From Octopus vulgaris (lineage: Eukaryota): a stretch of DNA of 64,000 nucleotides. The notes beneath the pieces are model-generated. The model was given only the letters and a program-made list of their open reading frames with translations. It searched no databases and was not told where the DNA came from. How positions within the stretch are numbered: position 1 is the stretch's first letter; the number at the start of each line of letters is the position of its first letter. The translations under genes were made by a program, and so were the position numbers. This document shows positions 2,500 through 57,964 of this stretch, piece by piece. Where the stretch lies: assembly GCA_951406725.2 (NCBI GenBank), contig OX597816.1, positions 74,834,001 to 74,898,000 on the forward strand, given 5' to 3'.

Positions 2500-3440
2500 T
2501 TCAAGATGCCAAGATATCAAAAATTGTCAAAGCGTAGTACAACAGTTTTGCTATGGAATGGTGTCTGAAAAGACACCCACATAGATTGCACATTCGATTT
2601 GGACCACCAACAGTTACTGATCTTTGTAGATCTTAAAATGTCTTTTAAGGCCTCCGTTAGATTTTCAAACCTTCTGGCATACACTGCATTCAAAGGTGTG
2701 CACAGACATATAGGCAGAATAGTTGGTGGAGGTTCGTTTCCCGGGGGTTCGCAAATGAGATTTGAGCCTAGTAAAAGAAAAGCATGGTCTATCGCAAACT
2801 GTGCACACAAAAAGGCCATCGTCATTCACCTTCTCGATCGTAACATTCTTCCTTAGATCTCTTTTGGGTCTTACATGCGTTATCCTGGCCTCTTCAAATG
2901 CTTTCACTCCACTCCACAATTTGTTCGCCATCCAACTCGATCCGAAGCAAGAGTTTCTATATCGTCTGGATCCACTCCAAGTGACTTCATAGTAGTCCTT
3001 ATGCCGTCCTTAAACCTTTTCTTTTTTAGGTTTACGCCGATAGCGTTTCTCCTCTGCAAGCTCACCATAAAACAGCTGTTTCGGCGTGTGTTCATCCGCC
3101 ATTCGAACAATATGGCCACACCACCTCATTTGGTTCATCAAAATAATACCTTTAATTGAGATGATGCCTGCAGATGCAAGGACATCTGTGTTTGGAATAA
3201 AAGGACTACATTTAATGTTTAAAATGTGATTAAGGCATTTTTGGGTAGAATTGTTCTAACAGTTTAAAAGTCCAAGTTTCACAAGAATACAACACGTTGA
3301 GTAAGACAAATGATTTGTAAAGAGCCAGCTTTGTATTCTTATTTATATGTCGCTGGCACCAAACGCGTGACTCCAAGCCACCAAATGCTTCTGCTGCTCT
3401 TTGAATTCGCAGATGTATTTCTGTATCAAGATTTCCAAGA
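2500..3440 (-). mobile_element. Decayed 5'-truncated RTE LINE fragment, same family as 49225-52900
   Basis: KRFKDGIRTTMKSLGVDPDDIETLASDRVGWR; FVCTVCDRPCFSFTRLKSHLR; clear nucleotide similarity to 49330-50220. Confidence 0.85.
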
Positions 3441-5190: not shown

Positions 5191-5487
5191 GGGCCTGTGT
5201 TTGTGTGCATAAGTTTCACGAATATCATTGAGTACGAAATTGGTTTCCGATATTTAGGACGCGGTATTTCTAACAAGGTAATGCAGATGCGTAGTAATTG
5301 AAACAGAAGTAAAGACAACGAGAAACAATAGAAAAATTATGGACGATATATATTCTACATATTTATGTATATATACATATATGTGCGTGTGTATGTTGGT
5401 GTATGTAATATGTATACATATGTATGTGTGTGACAACCGCACGATTCTCTGAACCTATATTTTATACTACTCTTTTATGCATATATA

Positions 5488-5712
5488 TTGGGTTGTCCGG
5501 AAAGTTCGTTCCGATCTATAGTAGCTTACCTTTCGACTTACCCTCCCAGGCACCTCAACTCTGGGAAGAGGGTATTTTCAAGTGAAAGAAAAGATGGAGA
5601 CGCATTGTGCAACAAAATGGTTCATATTTGGTTGATTAAAAATGTAATGGCAAGTATTTATTGACATTTTTCTTTGCTTTAAAAACCGGCACGAACTTTC
5701 CGGACAACCCGA
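5488..5712 (+). mobile_element. Mariner internal-deletion derivative (MITE), same family as 36333-36898
   Basis: TIR ttgggttgtccggaaagttcg / cgaactttccggacaaccc, TA flanks; retains the transposase C-terminal tail. Confidence 0.9.
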
Positions 5713-11866: not shown

Positions 11867-11868
<2 letters not shown>

Positions 11869-12374
11869 CCTATCTGGCGACGTCGATGTTCGCCTGGGGC
11901 TAAATGCAACAGTAACACCCCCCACCACCCTGCCCTGTCCCTAGCCATATTCCGATGGCTTTAGTCCCTTATGTTATGGAGCAGTTACTGTATATATCTT
12001 ATTTAGAGAATTATTATTGCTGTCGAACAGATTTTCGAAATCAGCAGATGTATTTTGCTTGAAAATCTATATATGAATATCCTGCAGAGTGAGATTTCGT
12101 CGAGGAAGCGGGGGCCTACCACACGTTGATGATAGGCAATACACCTTGAAACCATGGTCCGTGTGTGGTTTCCGCTTCATCGGGGAATTATCTCCCTTTG
12201 CAGGTTACCGTGATGGTGTCAAGCCTATCTGGCGACGTCGATGTTCGCCTGGGGCTAAATGCAACAGTAACACCCCCACCACCCTGCCCTGTCCCTAGCC
12301 ATATTCAGATGGCTTTAGTCCCTTATGTTATGGAGCAGTTACTGTATATATCTCATTTAGAGAATTATTATTGC

Positions 12375-19509: not shown

Positions 19510-19765
19510 GTTTTGCTCAAGAACACAACGCATCACCTGGTCCAGGAATCGAAACCACGACCTTACGACCATGAGTTCAACACCCTAACCACTAAGCCAC
19601 GCGCCTTCACACACACACACACGCACACACGTTGCTCCAGTCCACTCAGCTGGCAAAAATGAATAACGCTGCGATGGACTGGCGTCCAGTCCACCTCGGG
19701 AATACATACGCCATTGAAACCGGGAAATCGGGCCCATGAGCCTGGCTAGGCTTTAAAAGGGCGCA
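19510..19765. mobile_element. SINE family C-like copy: head on minus strand, body on plus strand
   Basis: 19510-19608 is a reverse-complement tRNA-like head; 19630-19765 is body (gttgctccagtccactcagc..gaaaccgggaaatcgggccc). Confidence 0.6.
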
Positions 19766-19779
19766 TTTATTTTATATAT

Positions 19780-19902
<123 letters not shown>

Positions 19903-25202: not shown

Positions 25203-25736
25203 GGATCTTTTCAGTTTGGATGGCAGTTTTTTCTAGCGGTGTCATACGAAATTGTCACCCATAATTATGACCCTAGAATCGATCTATTGCAATTCAATCT
25301 ATTTTAGGGTTAGGGTTAGTTAAGGTTGGTTAGGGTTAGGGTTAGTTAAGGTTGGTTAGGGTTAGGGTTAGTTAAGGTTGGTTAGGGTTAGGGTTAGTTA
25401 AGGTTGGTTAGGGTTAGGGTTAGTTAAGGTTGGTTAGGGTTAGGGTTAGGGTCAGGGATTTTCTTCACAAATGTAAATAAACCCAATCTGTTTCTTAAAC
25501 GAGGGACATATTCATACGGCACAGAATGCTTTTTAACTCAACAGACGTCACTGATTGGTTGAAATTGCAGAAATTGAAGAAAAAAAACAACAAATATCTT
25601 ACAAACTATAGAATTTTCTCAATAAAGCCAAGAGAAAAAGATGTTTTATAAACACATTCTACCAGTATACGAAGTTTAACATTTTTTAGTTACCTAGAAA
25701 TTATGTTAAAAACTGCCGTTCAAACCGAAAAGATCC
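25203..25736. mobile_element. MITE with GGATCTTTTC TIR and 8-bp TSD (Merlin-like), containing an expanded TTAGGG-variant array
   Basis: TIRs ggatcttttcagtttggatggcagtttt / aaaactgccgttcaaaccgaaaagatcc; TSD aaaagatc/gaaagatc; second copy at 57539. Confidence 0.85.
25304..25457 (+). repeat. Interstitial telomere-like minisatellite, 26-bp unit ttagggttagggttagttaaggttgg x~5
   Basis: Directly visible. Confidence 0.95.
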
Positions 25737-27744: not shown

Positions 27745-28057
27745 TATGCACACCAGAGTAAGCACAAACAATCGAAACAAGGTGTACCCTTAACGTAGTT
27801 CTCGGGGAGATTCAGCGTGACACAATGAGCGACAAGGCTAGCCCCTTTGAAATACAGGTACAACAGAAAACGGGAAGAAAGTGTGAGAGAAAGTTGTGGT
27901 GAAAGAGTACAGCAGGGTTCGCCACCACACCCTGCCGGAGCATCGTGGAGCTTTAGGTGTTTTCGCTCAACAAACACTCACAACGTCCGGTCTGGGAATC
28001 AAAACCGCGATCCTACGACCGGAAGTCCGCTACCCTAACCAGTGGGCCATTGCGCCT

Positions 28058-28060
<3 letters not shown>
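27745..28060 (-). mobile_element. tRNA-derived SINE family C
   Basis: Minus head ggaggcgcaatggcccactggttaggg..ggttttgattccc; homologous to 30808, 53450 and 56987. Confidence 0.8.
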
Positions 28061-28102
<42 letters not shown>

Positions 28103-30808: not shown

Positions 30809-31063
30809 GTGACTGACCAGGCTATTAGATGCTGCTACACATCGCTGGTCACAATGCGCTTCGCATTGTTCTAGCCTTCAAGCGAGCAGGCCAGCAGAAG
30901 AAAGAGTGAGAGAAAGTTGTGGCGAAGGAGTACAGCAGGGATCGCCACCGTCCCCTGCCTCGTGGAGCTTTAGGTGTTTTCGCTCAATAAACACTCACAA
31001 CGCTTGGTCTGGTAATCGAAACCGCGAGTCCGCTGCCCTAACCACTGGGCCATTGCGCCTCCA
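30808..31063 (-). mobile_element. SINE family C
   Basis: Homology to 27745-28060. Confidence 0.8.
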
Positions 31064-31106
31064 CATGTATATATATATAAATGCATACATATATATATAT
31101 ATATTT

Positions 31107-31194: not shown

Positions 31195-31392
31195 AAATGT
31201 GACCTCATGTGTACCGTTGGCGATTTTTTCCCTCTGTCTTCCCTTCTCTGGATCTTTCCTTCTCCTATGTTTCCGTCGAAGAGCTCCGCTAGAAACGTTA
31301 AACCCTCCTTCTTTCCTGAGCGTCCAATAATACTATATTGGTTCCACGTCCTCGCGTTGTTGTGTTTTTTTGTGCTTTCTTGTTTGGATTAA
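31195..31392 (+). mobile_element. (TA)n-embedded pLTR-like repeat with a decayed minimal hammerhead (31268-31303)
   Basis: Homologous to 54079-54262; tgttt ccgtcga a GAGC tcc GCTa GAAACGTT aaac. Confidence 0.7.
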
Positions 31393-31393
31393 C

Positions 31394-31439
<46 letters not shown>

Positions 31440-36332: not shown

Positions 36333-36898
36333 TTGGGTTGTCCGGAAAGTTCGTGCCGATTTTTAAAGGAAAGAAAAAGGTCAATAAATACTTGCCATTA
36401 CATTTTTGATCAACCAAATATGAACCATTTTGTTGCACAATGTGTCTTCATCTTTCCTTTAACTTGAAAATTGCCTCTTCCCAGAATTGAGGTGGTTTCA
36501 TGGCAAAGAATTCATCAAGGTATCTTTTTACGTCATCCAAGGAATTGAAATTTTTACCATTAGGACTATTCTGCAAAGACCTGAATAAGTGGAAATCCGA
36601 AGGAGCAATATCTGGTGAATATGGAGGGTGGGGTAACACATCCCAGCCGAGCTGCAGCAATTTTTGTCTAGTTCTCAAAGCATCAAGTGCCGAAAATGAA
36701 TTTTCTTATCTTCCATTTTAAAGGGTTACAGAATTAACACAGGTTATAGGAACATAAACCTTCTTCCACGAAAAGATAGCTGAAACTGTGCTCTAAATGG
36801 AGGTGTAGTCAAATCCTATTTTATGGACTCAACCATGTTCTAAAATAAGTCGAAAGGTAAGCTACTATAAATCGGCACGAACTTTCCGGACAACCCAA
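36333..36898 (-). mobile_element. Mariner element, internally deleted; retains transposase C-terminus
   Basis: Near-perfect TIRs with TA flanks; GWDVLPHPPYSPDIAPSDFHLFRSL matches the mariner YSPDLAPSD motif. Confidence 0.95.
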
Positions 36899-37274
36899 TA
36901 TAACTCTTTCTAACTTTGGCACAAGACCAGCAATTTTGAAGAGAGAGAGGAAAGGTTAACTGCATCGACTGCAATGCTCAACATGTACTTATTTTATCGA
37001 TCCCGAATGAATGAAAGGCAAATTCGACCTTAGCAGCATTTGAACTCAGAGCGTTAAGAGCCGAAAGAAATGCATCTTGTCCGGCATAGTAACGATTCTG
37101 TCAGGTCGCAGCATTATTTTTAAAATATACTCCTATAGGCACAAGGTCAGAAATTTAATGGGAGAAACTTGTCGATTACATTGACCCCATTGTTTCAACT
37201 GGTACTTATTTATCGAAAAGGATGAAGGGCAAAGTCGACCTCGGCGGGGTTTAAGCATTTTGTCTGGCATCCTC

Positions 37275-48331: not shown

Positions 48332-49139
48332 TGTGGTTTGATCATTAAGTATCCAGACTGTTGCCATAGCAACGAGATTAAAGCACGCAGAGTAAAGCTG
48401 CTAGGGAAAGATTGAACTTGAACTCTGTTGCGCATGCGCACTAACTTTTAGCGTTCTAGTTCACTTCCGCTTTTTACAGCAGTGCTTGGAAGGAAGATGT
48501 GTAGCGTGTAATCATCGCATTGACCATGTCAGAGAAAGTTGAGCAGAGAATCGGCATTAGAGTTTGACAAAAGATTGGTGATACCTGCTCAGAGGCCTAC
48601 ACAAAATTTTCAAAAAGTTTTCATCGTTCTTGACACAATCAAGGAGACCTTGCGCAACTGAAACCCGAGTGTCTTTTTGGTCAGCATAAGGACATAGAAA
48701 CCCTTACTTTGGATCGAGCTGGATGGCGAGCAAAAGTGCGGAGTGGAGTGAAAACCTTTGAGAAGGTCAGGATAGCATATGTAAGACTGAAGAGAGATTT
48801 AAAGAAGAATGTTGCGATCGAGAAGGTGAATCTTATTGACCTTTTTGTGTGTACAGTTTGTGATAGATCATGCCTTTTCTTTCCTGGGATCAAATCTCAT
48901 TTGCGAATCCAGGAAGAGCGAACCTCCACCAACTATTCTGCCTAGATATCTGCACACACCTTTCAATGCCGTGTATGTCATAAGGTCTGCAAATCTAACA
49001 GCAGAAGTGAGCTAGAACGTTAAAACTTAGTGCGCATACACAGCAGTGTTCAAGGTCAATCTTTACCAAGCAGCTTTAATCTGCATGCTATAGTTTCGTT
49101 ACTATGGCAACAGTCCGGATACTTAATAATCAGACCTCG
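48332..49139 (+). mobile_element. Mariner-derived non-autonomous element with ~140-bp inverted arms, carrying captured LINE DNA
   Basis: TA flanks; arms 48332-48472 and 49000-49139; internal MSEKVEQRIGIRV*QKIGDTCSEAY resembles a mariner N-terminus. Confidence 0.8.
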
Positions 49140-49224: not shown

Positions 49225-52200
49225 ACATGGTGGTTGTCTACTCCTTTGCAGATTTGACCATCTCTTATACCTGCACCTTAGATCCATCATGGCGTCTGAT
49301 ATGGCTTTTTAAACCAGACAATGTATTGAAAAGACATCCACTTAGATTGCATATCCGATTTGGACCACCAAGAATTGCAGTTAAGTTTTGAACTTTGTGG
49401 ATCTTAAAATGTATCGTGAGGCCTCCGTTAGATTTGCAGACCTTATGACATACACGGCATTGAAAGGTGTGTGCAGATATCTAGGCAGAATAGTTGGTGG
49501 AGGTTCGCTCTTCCTGGATTCGCAAATGAGATTTGATCCCAGGAAAGGAAAGACATGATCTATCACAAACTGTACACACAAAAAGGTCAATAAGATTCAC
49601 CTTCTCGATCGCAACATTCTTCTTTAAATCTCTCTTCAGTCTTACATGTGTTATCCTGACCTTCTCAAAGGTTTTTCACTCCACTCCGCACTTTTGCTCG
49701 CCATCCAGCTCGATCCAAAGTAAGGGTTTCTATGTCCTCTGAATCCATTCCAAGTGAAATCATGGTAGTCCTTATGCTGTCCTTAAACCTCTTTGGAGGT
49801 TTACACCGACTGCGTTTCCTCTCTGCAAGCTCGCCATAAAACAGTTGTTTGGATGTGTGTTCATCCACCATTCGAACAATATGGCCTGATCATCTCATTT
49901 GGTTTTTCAGAATCATTGATTTAATTGAAGTGATGCCTGCAGACGCAAAAACATTTGCAGACGCAAAAAAAAGCCCCATGCAATGTTTAAAATGCAGCGA
50001 AGGCATTTTGGGCGGAATCGTTCTGACAATTTGAAATGTCTTTCAAAACACGTCCATATTTCAGAAGAATGCAACAAGGGTAGTAAGACAAACGATTTGT
50101 AAAGAACCAATTTTGAGGTGTTATTCATATGTCGTTAGCTTCAAACTCGTGATTTCAAACAACTAAATGCTTGTGCTGCCCTTTGAATTCGCAAATGTAT
50201 TTCTGAATCCAAATTTCCATCATTTTGTACAGAGTTTCCAAAGTAGAAGAAAGCGTCAAAAACCACAAGTAACTTACCCCTAACGACCATATTATAGGGG
50301 TTGCAAACAACACCATATGCAGGTTGATACATTACAATTGCTTTGTTTCTTTATCAAGTTGATGGTCAAGCCAAAATCATCAAAAGCTGAGTCGAATGCA
50401 GATACAAGAGATTGCAGGCCCGTTTCAGGGTGACTAACTAGATCACAATCGTCAGAGTATAAAAGTTCCCTATTGCGTGCAGTGAAAACCTTTGCTTTGA
50501 ATTTCAGTCTGGTCAGATTAAAAACATTCCCTGTTCGATGTTTTATGTAAATACCCTCCCCATAGTTTTGAAAAGCATGTAACAGCACAACAACAAAGTA
50601 TATTGCAAAGAGGGTTGTTGCATCAAGGTATCCTTGCTTTACTCCATTTTTCACAGCAAAAGATTCAGAGAGCCTACCACCAAAATTAACTCTAGCCTTC
50701 ATATCTTGATGCAAAACCCTGATCATGTTTACAAATTTTTCTGGGCAACCTATTTTCCCTAGAATTAGCCAGAGCATTTCGATTAACAGTATTGAATACC
50801 TTGTTTAAATCAACAAAGCAATGGTATAGGGCAAGATTCTGTTCAGTGCACTTTACCTGAAATTGTCTGATACTAAAGATACAATCAACTGTGTCCCTGA
50901 CATTGCGACTTAGACATCATATTTGGAACTATGAAGGTTTTTATCGTTCTAACAGAATGCGGGTAAGTACTTTTCTAACTACAGAAAAAGCGAAATCCCA
51001 CAAAAATTACCACTTCGGCCCCGATTTATACAAGGAGATTAAAATGGCATCAATCCAGTCTTGAGGCACTTCCTCAGTTCTCCAACAGTGACAAATTAAT
51101 ATGAGTTCAAATATTTTGTCATCCCCATATTTCAAGACCTCTGCACAGATTCCATCAAACCCTGGATACTTATTGTTATTCAGCTTATTCACAGCTAAAT
51201 TAATGTCATTTAGAGTTGGTTAAAATGCCATCACCTCAATAACTGGAAAGTGTTCGATTTTTTTTTTCTATCATCCTCATGTCAACGGATGATGGTCTAT
51301 TCAAAAGTGCAGAAAAATGTTCTACCCAGCGCTTATGAATAGAAGCGGTGTCAATCAAAAACAAATGTCCATTTGCTGTTGTCACTGGAGCTATTGAAGA
51401 AGATTTGAGGCTATATACCTCCTTAACATAACAGTATCAAACTCTTGACATCATTTCTATCAGCTACTTCTTGCGCCTCTTTTGCTCTGTCATTCCACCA
51501 TTCCTTTTTAATTTTCCTTCAGCTTTCTGTAAGCTTCGTTTGAGTTGGGATTCAAGGACTGAGAAAGAAGTGTATTGTCCAAGTTTTGTTTTTCTAACAG
51601 TAGATCATAAATTTCTGGTGATTTGTCTGAAAACCAGTCACTGGACTTATGCGATTTAAATCCTATTGAAGAACTTACAGCCTAAAATACTTTTGTTTTG
51701 AAATCTTCCTATAGATTGATTGTTTCCATAGAATCGTGGAATCTTAGCAAGTTGCTTGATAATTTGAACTTTGCAACATTTAACTTTTTGGGCAATCTTA
51801 GGATCAGACTGTCGACTTTTAGGCATTACTGAAAAATTTATTTTTCAACGCACTAGACGATGGACAGTCCAGACCTCTGCTCCTCTCATGGCCCGAACAT
51901 TAGAAACATCTTTCATATCATGCTTTCTGATCAAAATATAATCTAAAACAGGCCATGAAATGTAAACATTTCCAACTCATGCTTTGCAATCTCCCAATAT
52001 GGCCAGCTTCTCAGAAATTGGTACTTTCCTCAATAATTGTGCTCGATCATCATAAAACTGTCCTACACTTTCACCAGAATGACACATTGTTGGTGCATAA
52101 ATACTGACAATGGTAACAAACCTACCTTTTGTCAGCTTTATACGGCATGACATGGTTCGTTCAGATATCCCACATGGAAGTTCTGTAATGGAGGACACTA

Positions 52201-52900
52201 ATGAATTCTTGAGAGCAAACCCAACATCAGATTCGCTTCGCTGAATCGCAGGTAGGCTTCTCCAGAAGATAGTATATCCATAAGTAAGTCCATTTATTTG
52301 ACGTTCGCCTGAGAGACGAGTTTCAGAGAACGCAACTGTATCAAGGGATTACTTTTTAAGCTCACATACAATAAGGGCAGTACGCCTTTCTGGCCTCTTG
52401 TTGCAATTATCATCGAGAAGTGTGCGCACATTCCAGCAGCCAAAATTTAGAGAATGTTAATTTTTTTCTTCTTCTTGGGGATTGTTTGATCAGTGACAGG
52501 ATGACGACCGGGCCCAGCCTGTTACACAGTAGGACACCTGCTGAGCCAGATCTGTTCCCTTGACGTTCCCAAGCCTTTTTTTAAAAATCTGTTTGAGATA
52601 TTTCAGAGTAAGTTGCAAGTTCATTTTTAGGTTTCTGCCTACCAGTTCAATGATTTTACTAAGAAGTACCTGTGCAGTTGTATATATTTTCAGTGATTGT
52701 AGCTTGCACTGCACTACCTTCACCTATTGGCCCAAGAAAACTTTCGCCGGTGTCACATGAGAACTGACAAAACCGGGAACTTCCAGGACCTCGGGTTTTA
52801 TTTTGGAGATTTCCTTCTCCTAGATAGATCAATCAAGGTTAAAGAGCTTCTACCTGCCCATGAGGTAAGCTATCCCGTGTCAGACACCAAGCTGATACCC
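49225..52900 (-). mobile_element. Near full-length decayed RTE (BovB-type) LINE: APE endonuclease, RT and C-terminal C2H2 fingers
   Basis: FGCWNVRTLLDD..RPERRTALI; TIVSIYAPT; VPQDWIDA; KIGCPEKFV; GVKQG; ELLYSDD; many stops and frameshifts. Confidence 0.95.
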
Positions 52901-53447: not shown

Positions 53448-53449
53448 AG

Positions 53450-53725
53450 TGGAGGCACATGGCCGAGTGGTTAGAGTAGCGGACTCGCAGTCGAGGGATC
53501 GCGGGTTCGAATCTCAGACCGGGCGATGTGTGTGTTTATGAGTGAAACGCCAAAGCTCCACACGGCTCCGGCAAAAGGTAATGGCGAACTTCTGCTGACT
53601 CTTTCGTCACAACTTTCTCTCACTCTTTCCTCCTGCGACGGACCGGCGTCTCGTCCAGCTAGGGTACCTATACGCCAAAGAAACCGGGAAACCGGCCCTT
53701 ATGAGCCAGGCATAGCTGGAGAAGG
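53450..53725 (+). mobile_element. SINE family C
   Basis: tggccgagtggttaga (A box) and gggttcgaatctc (B box). Confidence 0.85.
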
Positions 53726-54078
53726 AAGAAACAAAAAACATATATATATAGAGAGAGAGAGAGAATAAGGAAGGGGTTAGGCCACTGGTGATCAAAACTT
53801 ATAGGCACACTGTGTAAGTGCTCCAATTGATAAGCCACTAGGATCCAAGTTTACAACGGGGACCGGAACTGGGGATCCGTAGCCTACTTCCGAGCAGCGG
53901 GTATAAACAAAACCAAGGCAGAACAAGCTTATCAGATATTCTAAATCATTTTAATTATCATAACGGTGAATCTAAGAAAGCAAAAGTAAATAATAATGTC
54001 TTACAGTTGCTTCAGGCATATTCCAGATAATGGATCAATGTGTTGATCCACATTTCCATATACTGAGTATTCCGTCAG

Positions 54079-54262
54079 CGATTTTTTTTGCTCCGTCTTC
54101 CCTTCTTTGGATCTTTCCTTCCTATGTTTCTGACGAAGAGCTCCGCTCGAAACATTAAACCCTCCTTCTTTCCTCCTTTCCTGGGCGTCCAATAATACTA
54201 TACTTGTTCCACGTCCTCGCGTTGTTGTGTTTTCTCTTTGTGTTTTCATGTTTGGATTAACT
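54079..54262 (+). mobile_element. pLTR-like repeat with minimal hammerhead (54125-54160)
   Basis: tgttt CUGACGA a GAGC ucc GCUC GAAA ca UU aaac; sister copy at 31195. Confidence 0.75.
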
Positions 54263-54277
54263 ACATATATATATATA

Positions 54278-54330
<53 letters not shown>

Positions 54331-54416
54331 GGAAAACAAAACCAGGGTAGGACGAGCATCTCAGGTCATTCAGAATATTTAATTAGAATAAAAAAAAGAG
54401 AGGTAGAAGTAAGTTG

Positions 54417-54494
54417 TGTCTTACAGCTGTTTCTAGGATATCCTAGGTAATGGGTAAACACATCCATACACTAGGTATTCCGTCATCAGAGACA
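54417..54494 (-). ncRNA. Type I hammerhead ribozyme with canonical core and palindromic stem III
   Basis: Minus strand: UGUCU CUGAUGA [cGGAauaCCUAG..augg..ccau..CUAGGauaUCCua] GAAA CAGCUG UA AGACA; truncated sister copy at ~53997-54078. Confidence 0.8.
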
Positions 54495-54604
54495 ATGTGT
54501 ATATGCAGGAAAGTTCCAAACAGAGAATTCACAGTAGATAAAAGAATAAAGATGGAAGAATAAAGTTCACAGTTCATCAGTGAACTAAACCCTTCGTATT
54601 CTTT

Positions 54605-54646
<42 letters not shown>

Positions 54647-56986: not shown

Positions 56987-57280
56987 GCGGCCTAGTGGTT
57001 AGAGCAGTGGACTCGCGGTCGAGGGATCGCGGGTTCGAATCTCAGACTGGGCGATGTGTGTGTTTATGAGCGAAATACCTAATAAGCTCCACGCGGTTCC
57101 GGCAGAAGGTAATGGCGAACTTCTGCTGACTCTTTCGCCAGAAATTTTCTCACTCTTTCCTCTTGCATCTTGCAGCTCACCTGCGACAGACCGGCGTCCC
57201 GTCCAGGTGGGGAACCTATACGCCAAGGAAACAGGGAAACCGGCCCTATGGGCCAGGCGTGGCTCGAGAAGGAACAAACA
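56987..57280 (+). mobile_element. SINE family C
   Basis: Homologous to 53450-53725. Confidence 0.85.
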
Positions 57281-57538: not shown

Positions 57539-57964
57539 GGATCTTTTCGGTTTAAACGGCAGTTTTTCTAGCAGTGTCATATGAAATTATCACCCATAAT
57601 TATGACCCTAGTATCGATCTATTGCATTTCAATGTGTTTTAGGGTTAGGGTTAGTTAGGGTTAGGGGTGGGGGGAAGGGTTTTCTTTTTTCTTCACAAAT
57701 GTAAATAATCCCAATCTGTTTCTAAAACGAGGGACATATTCATACGGCACGCCATGTTTTTTACCTCAATGGACGTCACTGATTGGTGAAATTGCAGAAA
57801 TTGAAGAAAAAAAAACAACAAATATCTTACAAACTATAGAATTTTCTCAATAAAGCCAAGAGAAAAAGATGTTTTATAAACACATTCTACCAGTATACGA
57901 AGTTTAACATTTTTTAGTTACCTAGAAATTATGTTAAAAACTGCCGTTCAAACCGAAAAGATCC
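57539..57964. mobile_element. Second copy of the GGATC-TIR MITE, inserted into a SINE A (57462-58250)
   Basis: Perfect 8-bp TSD cttattct on both sides; short TTAGGG/G-run core. Confidence 0.92.

Follow-up and report, generated by a model that had tools for sequence, protein, structure and literature searches.

The DNA analysed here is a 64,000-nt stretch of the Octopus vulgaris genome (assembly GCA_951406725.2, contig OX597816.1, forward-strand positions 74,834,001–74,898,000), which we refer to as the window. The window is AT-rich, with 151 tandem-repeat rows, many microsatellites and interspersed repeats; ARAGORN finds no tRNA genes in it. Within it lies a compact series of repeats bounded by simple-sequence runs. 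From left to right these are a short (TA)n(GA)n run (53740–53764), a minus-strand repeat that we call A′ (53905–54077) with its continuation (53765–53904), a plus-strand element of a second family, B (54078–54262), a (TA)n microsatellite (54263–54326), a minus-strand dispersed repeat, copy A (54327–54607), and an (AC)n run (54608–54644) at the 5′ end of copy A. A, A′ and B each carry an intact or damaged hammerhead ribozyme motif. Copy A comprises 113 nt of upstream sequence, the ribozyme and 90 nt of downstream sequence reaching to the TA run. Directly to the left of the cluster is a member of another repeat family (53448–53740), which we take to be a tRNA-like SINE; its relatives at 56989–57280, 27873–28088, 30897–31064 and 19510–19796 are 73–83% identical.

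The motif in copy A, a type I hammerhead on the minus strand (54494–54417), can be read straight from the sequence. Helix I consists of five Watson-Crick pairs (UGUCU, 54494–54490, with AGACA, 54421–54417), and the core boxes are CUGAUGA (54489–54483) and GAAA (54433–54430). An extra C follows the first box, then an interrupted helix II, an extra A and the second box. The 3′ part runs from GAAA through CAGCUG and UA to the partner strand of helix I, and helix III is formed by the palindrome ACAGCUGU (54430–54423). The preliminary description of this locus had claimed a canonical core with a perfect 5-bp stem I, and both are present in the only match to our descriptor in the window. Its predicted cut between 54422 and 54421 likewise agrees with our reading, since the cleavage triplet GUA places A17 at 54422. 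The core CUGANGA/GAAA/UH within a three-helix junction is accompanied by all three traits of the minimal hammerheads of Penelope-like elements (PLEs): an extra base after A9, a short helix I and a palindromic helix III. The spacer between the core boxes is 49 nt long and can form an interrupted helix II of ∼15 bp (15 listed pairs, with bulges) closed by a 10-nt loop. The base of this helix is imperfect, as had been described: C54482 stands opposite A54434 and is followed by a G·U pair (54481/54435). No G10.1–C11.1 pair is stacked directly on the core, with an extra A before G12 and, in this copy, the G·U. A second CTGATGA lies upstream of the motif in a small hairpin (54564–54584, minus strand) and has no fitting GAAA partner; other subfamilies of the repeat depart from copy A at about this site.

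Could such an arrangement arise by chance in AT-rich repeat DNA? The window contains 22 loose CUGANGA..GAAA pairs, the fold energy of the locus is unremarkable (z-score −1.21), and none of the eight Rfam matches at the cluster (E up to 10) is a hammerhead. Across the whole window, no hammerhead is among the Rfam matches listed (150 of 283), which are dominated by microsatellite matches to miRNA models. A descriptor that requires the core together with a palindromic helix III and five or more pairs in helix I, which was composed after the motif in copy A had been seen, matches the window exactly once. When the 52,196 bases outside microsatellites were shuffled 300 times with dinucleotide content approximately kept, it matched 0.003 times per shuffle. 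In addition, variation across family A is compatible with the structure, and the two copies of family B together give the published minimal consensus (see below). A chance origin is therefore hardly credible. The motifs are hammerhead sequences, and both the identity of the motif in copy A and the dimer-type nature of its helix III are supported.

Copy A is predicted to be inactive in self-cleavage as a monomer. In the modelled monomer, helix III and the base of helix II have pairing probabilities of just 0.016 and 0.035, respectively, and pairing is predicted for the distal part of helix II and for helix I (0.78–1.0). Two copies of the ACAGCUGU palindrome would form an 8-bp duplex with a computed energy of −13.1 kcal/mol. 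The descriptor search finds no intact same-strand partner in the 64-kb window. A cleavage assay on a transcript of this region, as proposed in the preliminary description, might show no product even for a correct assignment, because the minimal hammerheads published for this class are poor cleavers or depend on a protein. One contig from a public sequencing run that is only guessed to be RNA (X1) covers 54349–54530 with two differences at a depth of 2.6 and spans the predicted cut; it is uninformative on the strand, level or cleavage of any transcript of the motif.

A′ belongs to another subfamily of the same repeat. It shares 67% identity with copy A over 175 columns (alignment score 104; the best of 500 shuffles reached 38) and has a longer helix II, with a 61-nt spacer between the core boxes. 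The 5′ strand of helix I and residues C3–A6 are missing, so that the first core box is reduced to UGA; the second box reads GAAG instead of GAAA, and the helix III palindrome is broken. These features bear out the earlier view of A′ as a diverged sister cut off inside its core. A 3-nt slip deletion within the A′ core can be rejected, because the 5′ strand of helix I is absent and the sequence matches the second copy of family B from 54078 onward. We also rejected the possibility that A and A′ form one partial tandem, as they are of different subfamilies. The continuation of A′ (53765–53904, minus strand) extends beyond the point at which copy A meets (TA)n. Judged by eye, the opening ∼20 nt of this continuation resemble the consensus of sequence that continues other A copies past this point. 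This GC-richer 140-nt segment, which has no further copy in the window and no Pfam match, may represent the rest of a pseudo-LTR or part of the element body.

Element B (54078–54262, plus strand) has another copy in the window, B2, which occupies 31195–31394 on the plus strand between two (TA)n runs; the part corresponding to B is 31214–31394. The two are 85% identical and stop at the same base before (TA)n. The hammerhead of B (54126–54160, plus strand) is minimal: GUUU, CUGACGA, an extra A, a 4-bp helix II, GAAA, CA, UU and AAAC. It matches the published minimal consensus CUGANGA-H-G..C-GAAA-N-palindrome-U-H (PMC4209133, Fig. S3) save for one base of helix III, where B has CA in place of the CG of B2, breaking the palindrome. 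In B2, helix III (ACGU) is intact, and the core is changed to CCGUCGA with C11.1 replaced by A. Taken together, B and B2 reconstitute the published minimal consensus. The claim that the cluster contains two different ribozyme-bearing families, A/A′ and B, is thus supported.

At the junction, the sequence follows family A through 54077 on the minus strand and B2 from 54078 on the plus strand, so A′ and B meet head to head, and B and copy A lie tail to tail across a single TA run (54263–54326) common to both of their 3′ ends. The direct opposite-strand join of A′ to B was recognised earlier; the boundary proposed at 54079 shifts by one base, as B takes over at 54078. The junction itself (54072–54077) comprises four bases common to both families (54072–54075) and two ambiguous bases. 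In all four copies the 3′ end adjoins a simple run: (TA)n for A, B and B2, and (GA)n(TA)n for A′. The distance from the hammerhead to the 3′ end is also similar, 90 nt in A and ∼100 nt in B. Target-site duplications are not readable within the microsatellite. The inverted neighbour of each element within the window is a member of the other family, and head-to-tail tandem hammerhead units are absent at this locus.

Family A is a dispersed, multi-copy repeat. We compared contigs of four public runs with copy A alone (54327–54607) at a likeness of at least 80%. Matching contigs numbered 589, 516 and 462 in three DNA runs from three studies, and 14 in the run guessed to be RNA; most were <95% identical to copy A, and contig depth was not taken as copy number. 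Among the 40 variants listed (of 57), none falls within the 29 positions of the core, helix I and helix III, vs 37 of the 252 positions elsewhere that carry one (Fisher p = 0.013, listed variants only; the 80% likeness filter favours conserved contigs). Core conservation among genomic copies, on which the preliminary description had made its claim depend, holds for the variants listed. Each of the 11 variants listed for helix II fits the fold: five lie in the loop and one in a bulge, two turn a G-C pair into G·U, one produces a G-C pair, and two replace a U-A pair by C-G. This last change, at 54473 (74–88%) and 54444 (84–89%), gives a C-G pair that is also present in A′; the two positions were not phased, and the two-sided change is read from separate columns. 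Neither 54482 nor 54434 carries a listed variant, which suggests that the C/A mismatch at the base of helix II is characteristic of the family; the mismatched position is A in family A and U in the sister A′. Within the cluster, copy A does carry the best-preserved hammerhead, as had been stated, but across the family its G·U at 54435 stands against a G-C pair in 87–92% of the depth.

The contigs also delimit copy A. Loose ends occur at 54328 and 54578, and at 54453, where the longer helix II of the sister subfamily appears in 15 and 13 contigs. Upstream of 54578, 11–17 contigs carry different sequence. Past 54328, a continuation common to other A copies is found in 29, 23 and 25 contigs, with a consensus agreement of just 0.57–0.59. 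Other A copies therefore run beyond both ends of copy A, which is likely a 5′-truncated Penelope-like 3′ end. Strand-switch joints also occur among the family A contigs, each in a single contig.

The intact core, helix I and helix III of copy A might suggest a ribozyme adopted by the host to cut a host transcript at this locus. We consider this very improbable. Copy A departs from the majority of one DNA run (X4) at 20 or more of 281 positions, including the change from G-C to G·U at the base of helix II; its monomer fold is predicted to be inactive; and no host exon was identified in the window.

What elements, then, do these repeats represent? The preliminary description gave no name to the class. 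We conclude that the three motifs are hammerheads in two multi-copy families that are likely 5′-truncated 3′ ends of PLEs, i.e. pseudo-LTRs, and that they likely landed serially in one microsatellite. The anatomy of the motifs and the TA-bound 3′ ends match such ends, and the continuation of other A copies past 54328 may correspond to the optional tail of PLEs. No ORF with the telomerase-like RT and GIY-YIG endonuclease of PLEs is found by Pfam in the 142 frames of the window. Only four of the frames match Pfam at all, each weakly; none of the matches is above the curated cut-off and none is to a PLE domain. The two frames flanking the motifs have no Pfam match. We also considered a PLE C-terminus in the 113 nt upstream in copy A, and the start of an ORF in the A′ extension; neither gave a Pfam match, and both were discarded. 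The lack of a PLE ORF in the window counts against the assignment.

Comparison with described PLE hammerheads shows both close likeness and differences. The minimal hammerheads of PLE pseudo-LTRs listed by Cervera and de la Pena (2014, PMC4209133) have an extra base after A9, a 5-bp helix I and a palindromic helix III. Most are single motifs left by truncated copies, and some form opposite-strand pairs 100–700 bp apart; cleavage was absent in monomers and weak in dimers. The motifs at this locus share the short helix I, the extra base and the dimer-requiring palindrome, and B is a textbook case. However, the ∼15-bp helix II and 49-nt spacer of A (61 nt in A′) far exceed the 7–8 bp called large in that report, family A has an extra base before G12, and the opposite-strand neighbours here come from different families.

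Likewise, the Hydra-clade PLEs described by Craig et al. (2021, PMC8557442) target (TA)n, many have U/U at the base of helix II, and their helix III is often of the form ACAG..CUGU-A; the plant element PLE-X1_cBra is shown there with C opposite A at the base of helix II. The locus resembles Hydra-clade and Chlamys/PLE-X elements in its (TA)n targets and in the position of the ribozyme, which lies ∼100–170 nt from the 3′ end in those elements. For family A, the mismatch at the base of helix II and the ACAG..CUGU-A pattern of helix III are further points of likeness, and PLE-X1_sMoe also has a long helix II and loop. Unlike these elements, family A has a helix III without loop bases. Neptune and Naiad share the insertion bias for (TA)n, and Neptune likewise favours microsatellites. 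We also considered three octopus sequences in the supplement of that study: the Hydra-1_Obim hammerhead, Naiad_Ovul (‘HHR_half_core’) and the 3′ part of Naiad_Obim. By eye these are unlike A and B, and a motif search of the supplement found no match, although line breaks in the FASTA text could hide a short one. Neither family was found described in the accessible parts of the literature; Repbase, Dfam and the O. vulgaris repeat library (PMC13282606) may hold both. Pattern scans of metagenome contigs returned 0 loci for A and 0 for B, and a scan of viral contigs for B also returned 0.

Because no PLE ORF is linked to A or B, a non-autonomous, retrozyme-like unit is also conceivable. Family A, and perhaps B, would then be a non-LTR retrozyme. 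Such short non-coding units give rise to tandem arrays and circular RNA and are mobilised in trans by PLE proteins; the copies here would be solo monomers. Family A keeps its ribozyme intact and no ORF is seen in the window frames. Metazoan non-LTR retrozymes are likewise short, non-coding repeats with type I hammerheads, and the axolotl HHR_Amex2 retrozyme has a U·U mismatch at the base of helix II (PMC7229834; bioRxiv 10.64898/2026.07.22.740005). Solo monomers are common among them and retrozymes derive from PLE pLTRs (bioRxiv 10.64898/2026.07.22.740005). Nonetheless, we regard the retrozyme assignment as quite unlikely: there is no tandem array or unit at the locus, A and A′ are different subfamilies at 67% identity, the sequence upstream of 54578 differs between subfamilies, and the anatomy is of the minimal PLE type rather than the canonical 6-bp/4-bp type of retrozymes (PMC7229834).

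Truncated PLE ends thus remain our preferred identification, and a plausible mechanism can be proposed for them. The ribozyme of the parent element would process multimeric transcripts, and would fold for this either as a dimer joined by the ACAGCUGU palindrome or assisted by the element's protein. The endonuclease of the element would nick (TA)n, and reverse transcription would begin inside the RNA; for copy A, it may have begun at a UA-rich stretch, leaving out the tail. The model for these steps is PAc, a Poseidon element of the green anole, in which nicking of AT-rich sequence on both strands and an internal start of reverse transcription are described, the tail is optional and cutting by the ribozyme depends on the protein (Frangieh et al. 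2024, PMC11167929). PAc activity was shown in vitro for a complete element; here the comparison is with the sequences of stumps. A′, B and A would each have arrived by an insertion of its own into a single compound microsatellite. B would be a later arrival, entering the TA run on the 5′ side of A′; its 5′ end may have annealed within A′ through microhomology and been fixed there, with loss of the start of A′. Copy A would now be silent.

The head-to-head joint of A′ and B admits a second history with the same class of element. Both strands of the TA run could have been nicked in one insertion, two RNAs, one from each family, copied, and the cDNAs annealed at their common bases. The product would be an inverted structure as usual for PLEs, with its two halves drawn from different families. 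The geometry, the TA runs at both 3′ ends and the four common bases would fit this course, as would the finding that the missing 5′ part of A′ does not appear on the far side of B. The purified anole protein, a predicted dimer, cleaves and extends both strands (PMC11167929). We nevertheless consider one insertion unlikely. The joint is a single case, and B begins only ∼20 nt inside the start of B2 and may thus be simply a short copy. The same product can also be reached in two steps: a Penelope inserted into another in opposite orientation is described, as are 5′ junctions and deletions at microhomology (Arkhipova et al., PMC3846280). Serial insertion is thus the simpler history. The preliminary description had offered repeated insertion at one (TA)n site or template switching among ribozyme-bearing elements; serial insertion into one microsatellite is the likelier of the two and fits best, and template switching is without specific support.

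Overall, this is a real motif in a real family of a known class; mildly new are the length of helix II and the inverted joint between two families. The locus contributes one more repeat family to a class that is well described, with a hammerhead anatomy that is unusual but has precedents. It is tempting to speculate that the helix II of family A, which would be several times as long as usual, and its fixed base mismatch are kept by selection and that the A′/B joint arose in a single event, as an inverted insertion copied from RNAs of two families, though we view this combination as unlikely. If it were true, family A would be invisible to Rfam and to published descriptors with 3–7 bp, and long-arm hammerheads would perhaps be under-counted in animal genomes. 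A one-event joint would also mean that two unrelated templates can be copied at a single site by a pair of PLE enzymes. The two subfamily lengths of helix II provide a natural test of the role of this arm in cleavage or protein binding (PMC4209133, PMC11167929). Mixed-family head-to-head joints, if frequent genome-wide, would bear on how PLEs build inverted structures, a matter that is not settled (PMC8557442, PMC3846280).

Several other features of the window deserve mention. A decayed LINE-like element occupies 49327–52348 on the minus strand, with related pieces at 2566–3437 and 48689–48999. A weak RVT_1 match at 50295–50804 (E = 0.00095) is the only plausible one of the four weak Pfam matches. 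The piece at 48689–48999 is a 98% inverted copy of 49427–49738, a recent inverted duplication. An interstitial telomere-like array at 25304–25457 consists of a 26-bp unit of TTAGGG variants repeated 5.6 times at 100% identity; it interrupts a repeat whose two sides match 57539–57633 and 57687–57964. A 153-bp direct repeat (11868–12020 and 12223–12374) has copies that are 98% identical, lie 355 bp apart and each adjoin a TA-rich run. Finally, 5484–5710 and 36335–36902 are related in inverted orientation: two adjacent segments match the distant region at 93–96%, with ∼350 bp missing between them.
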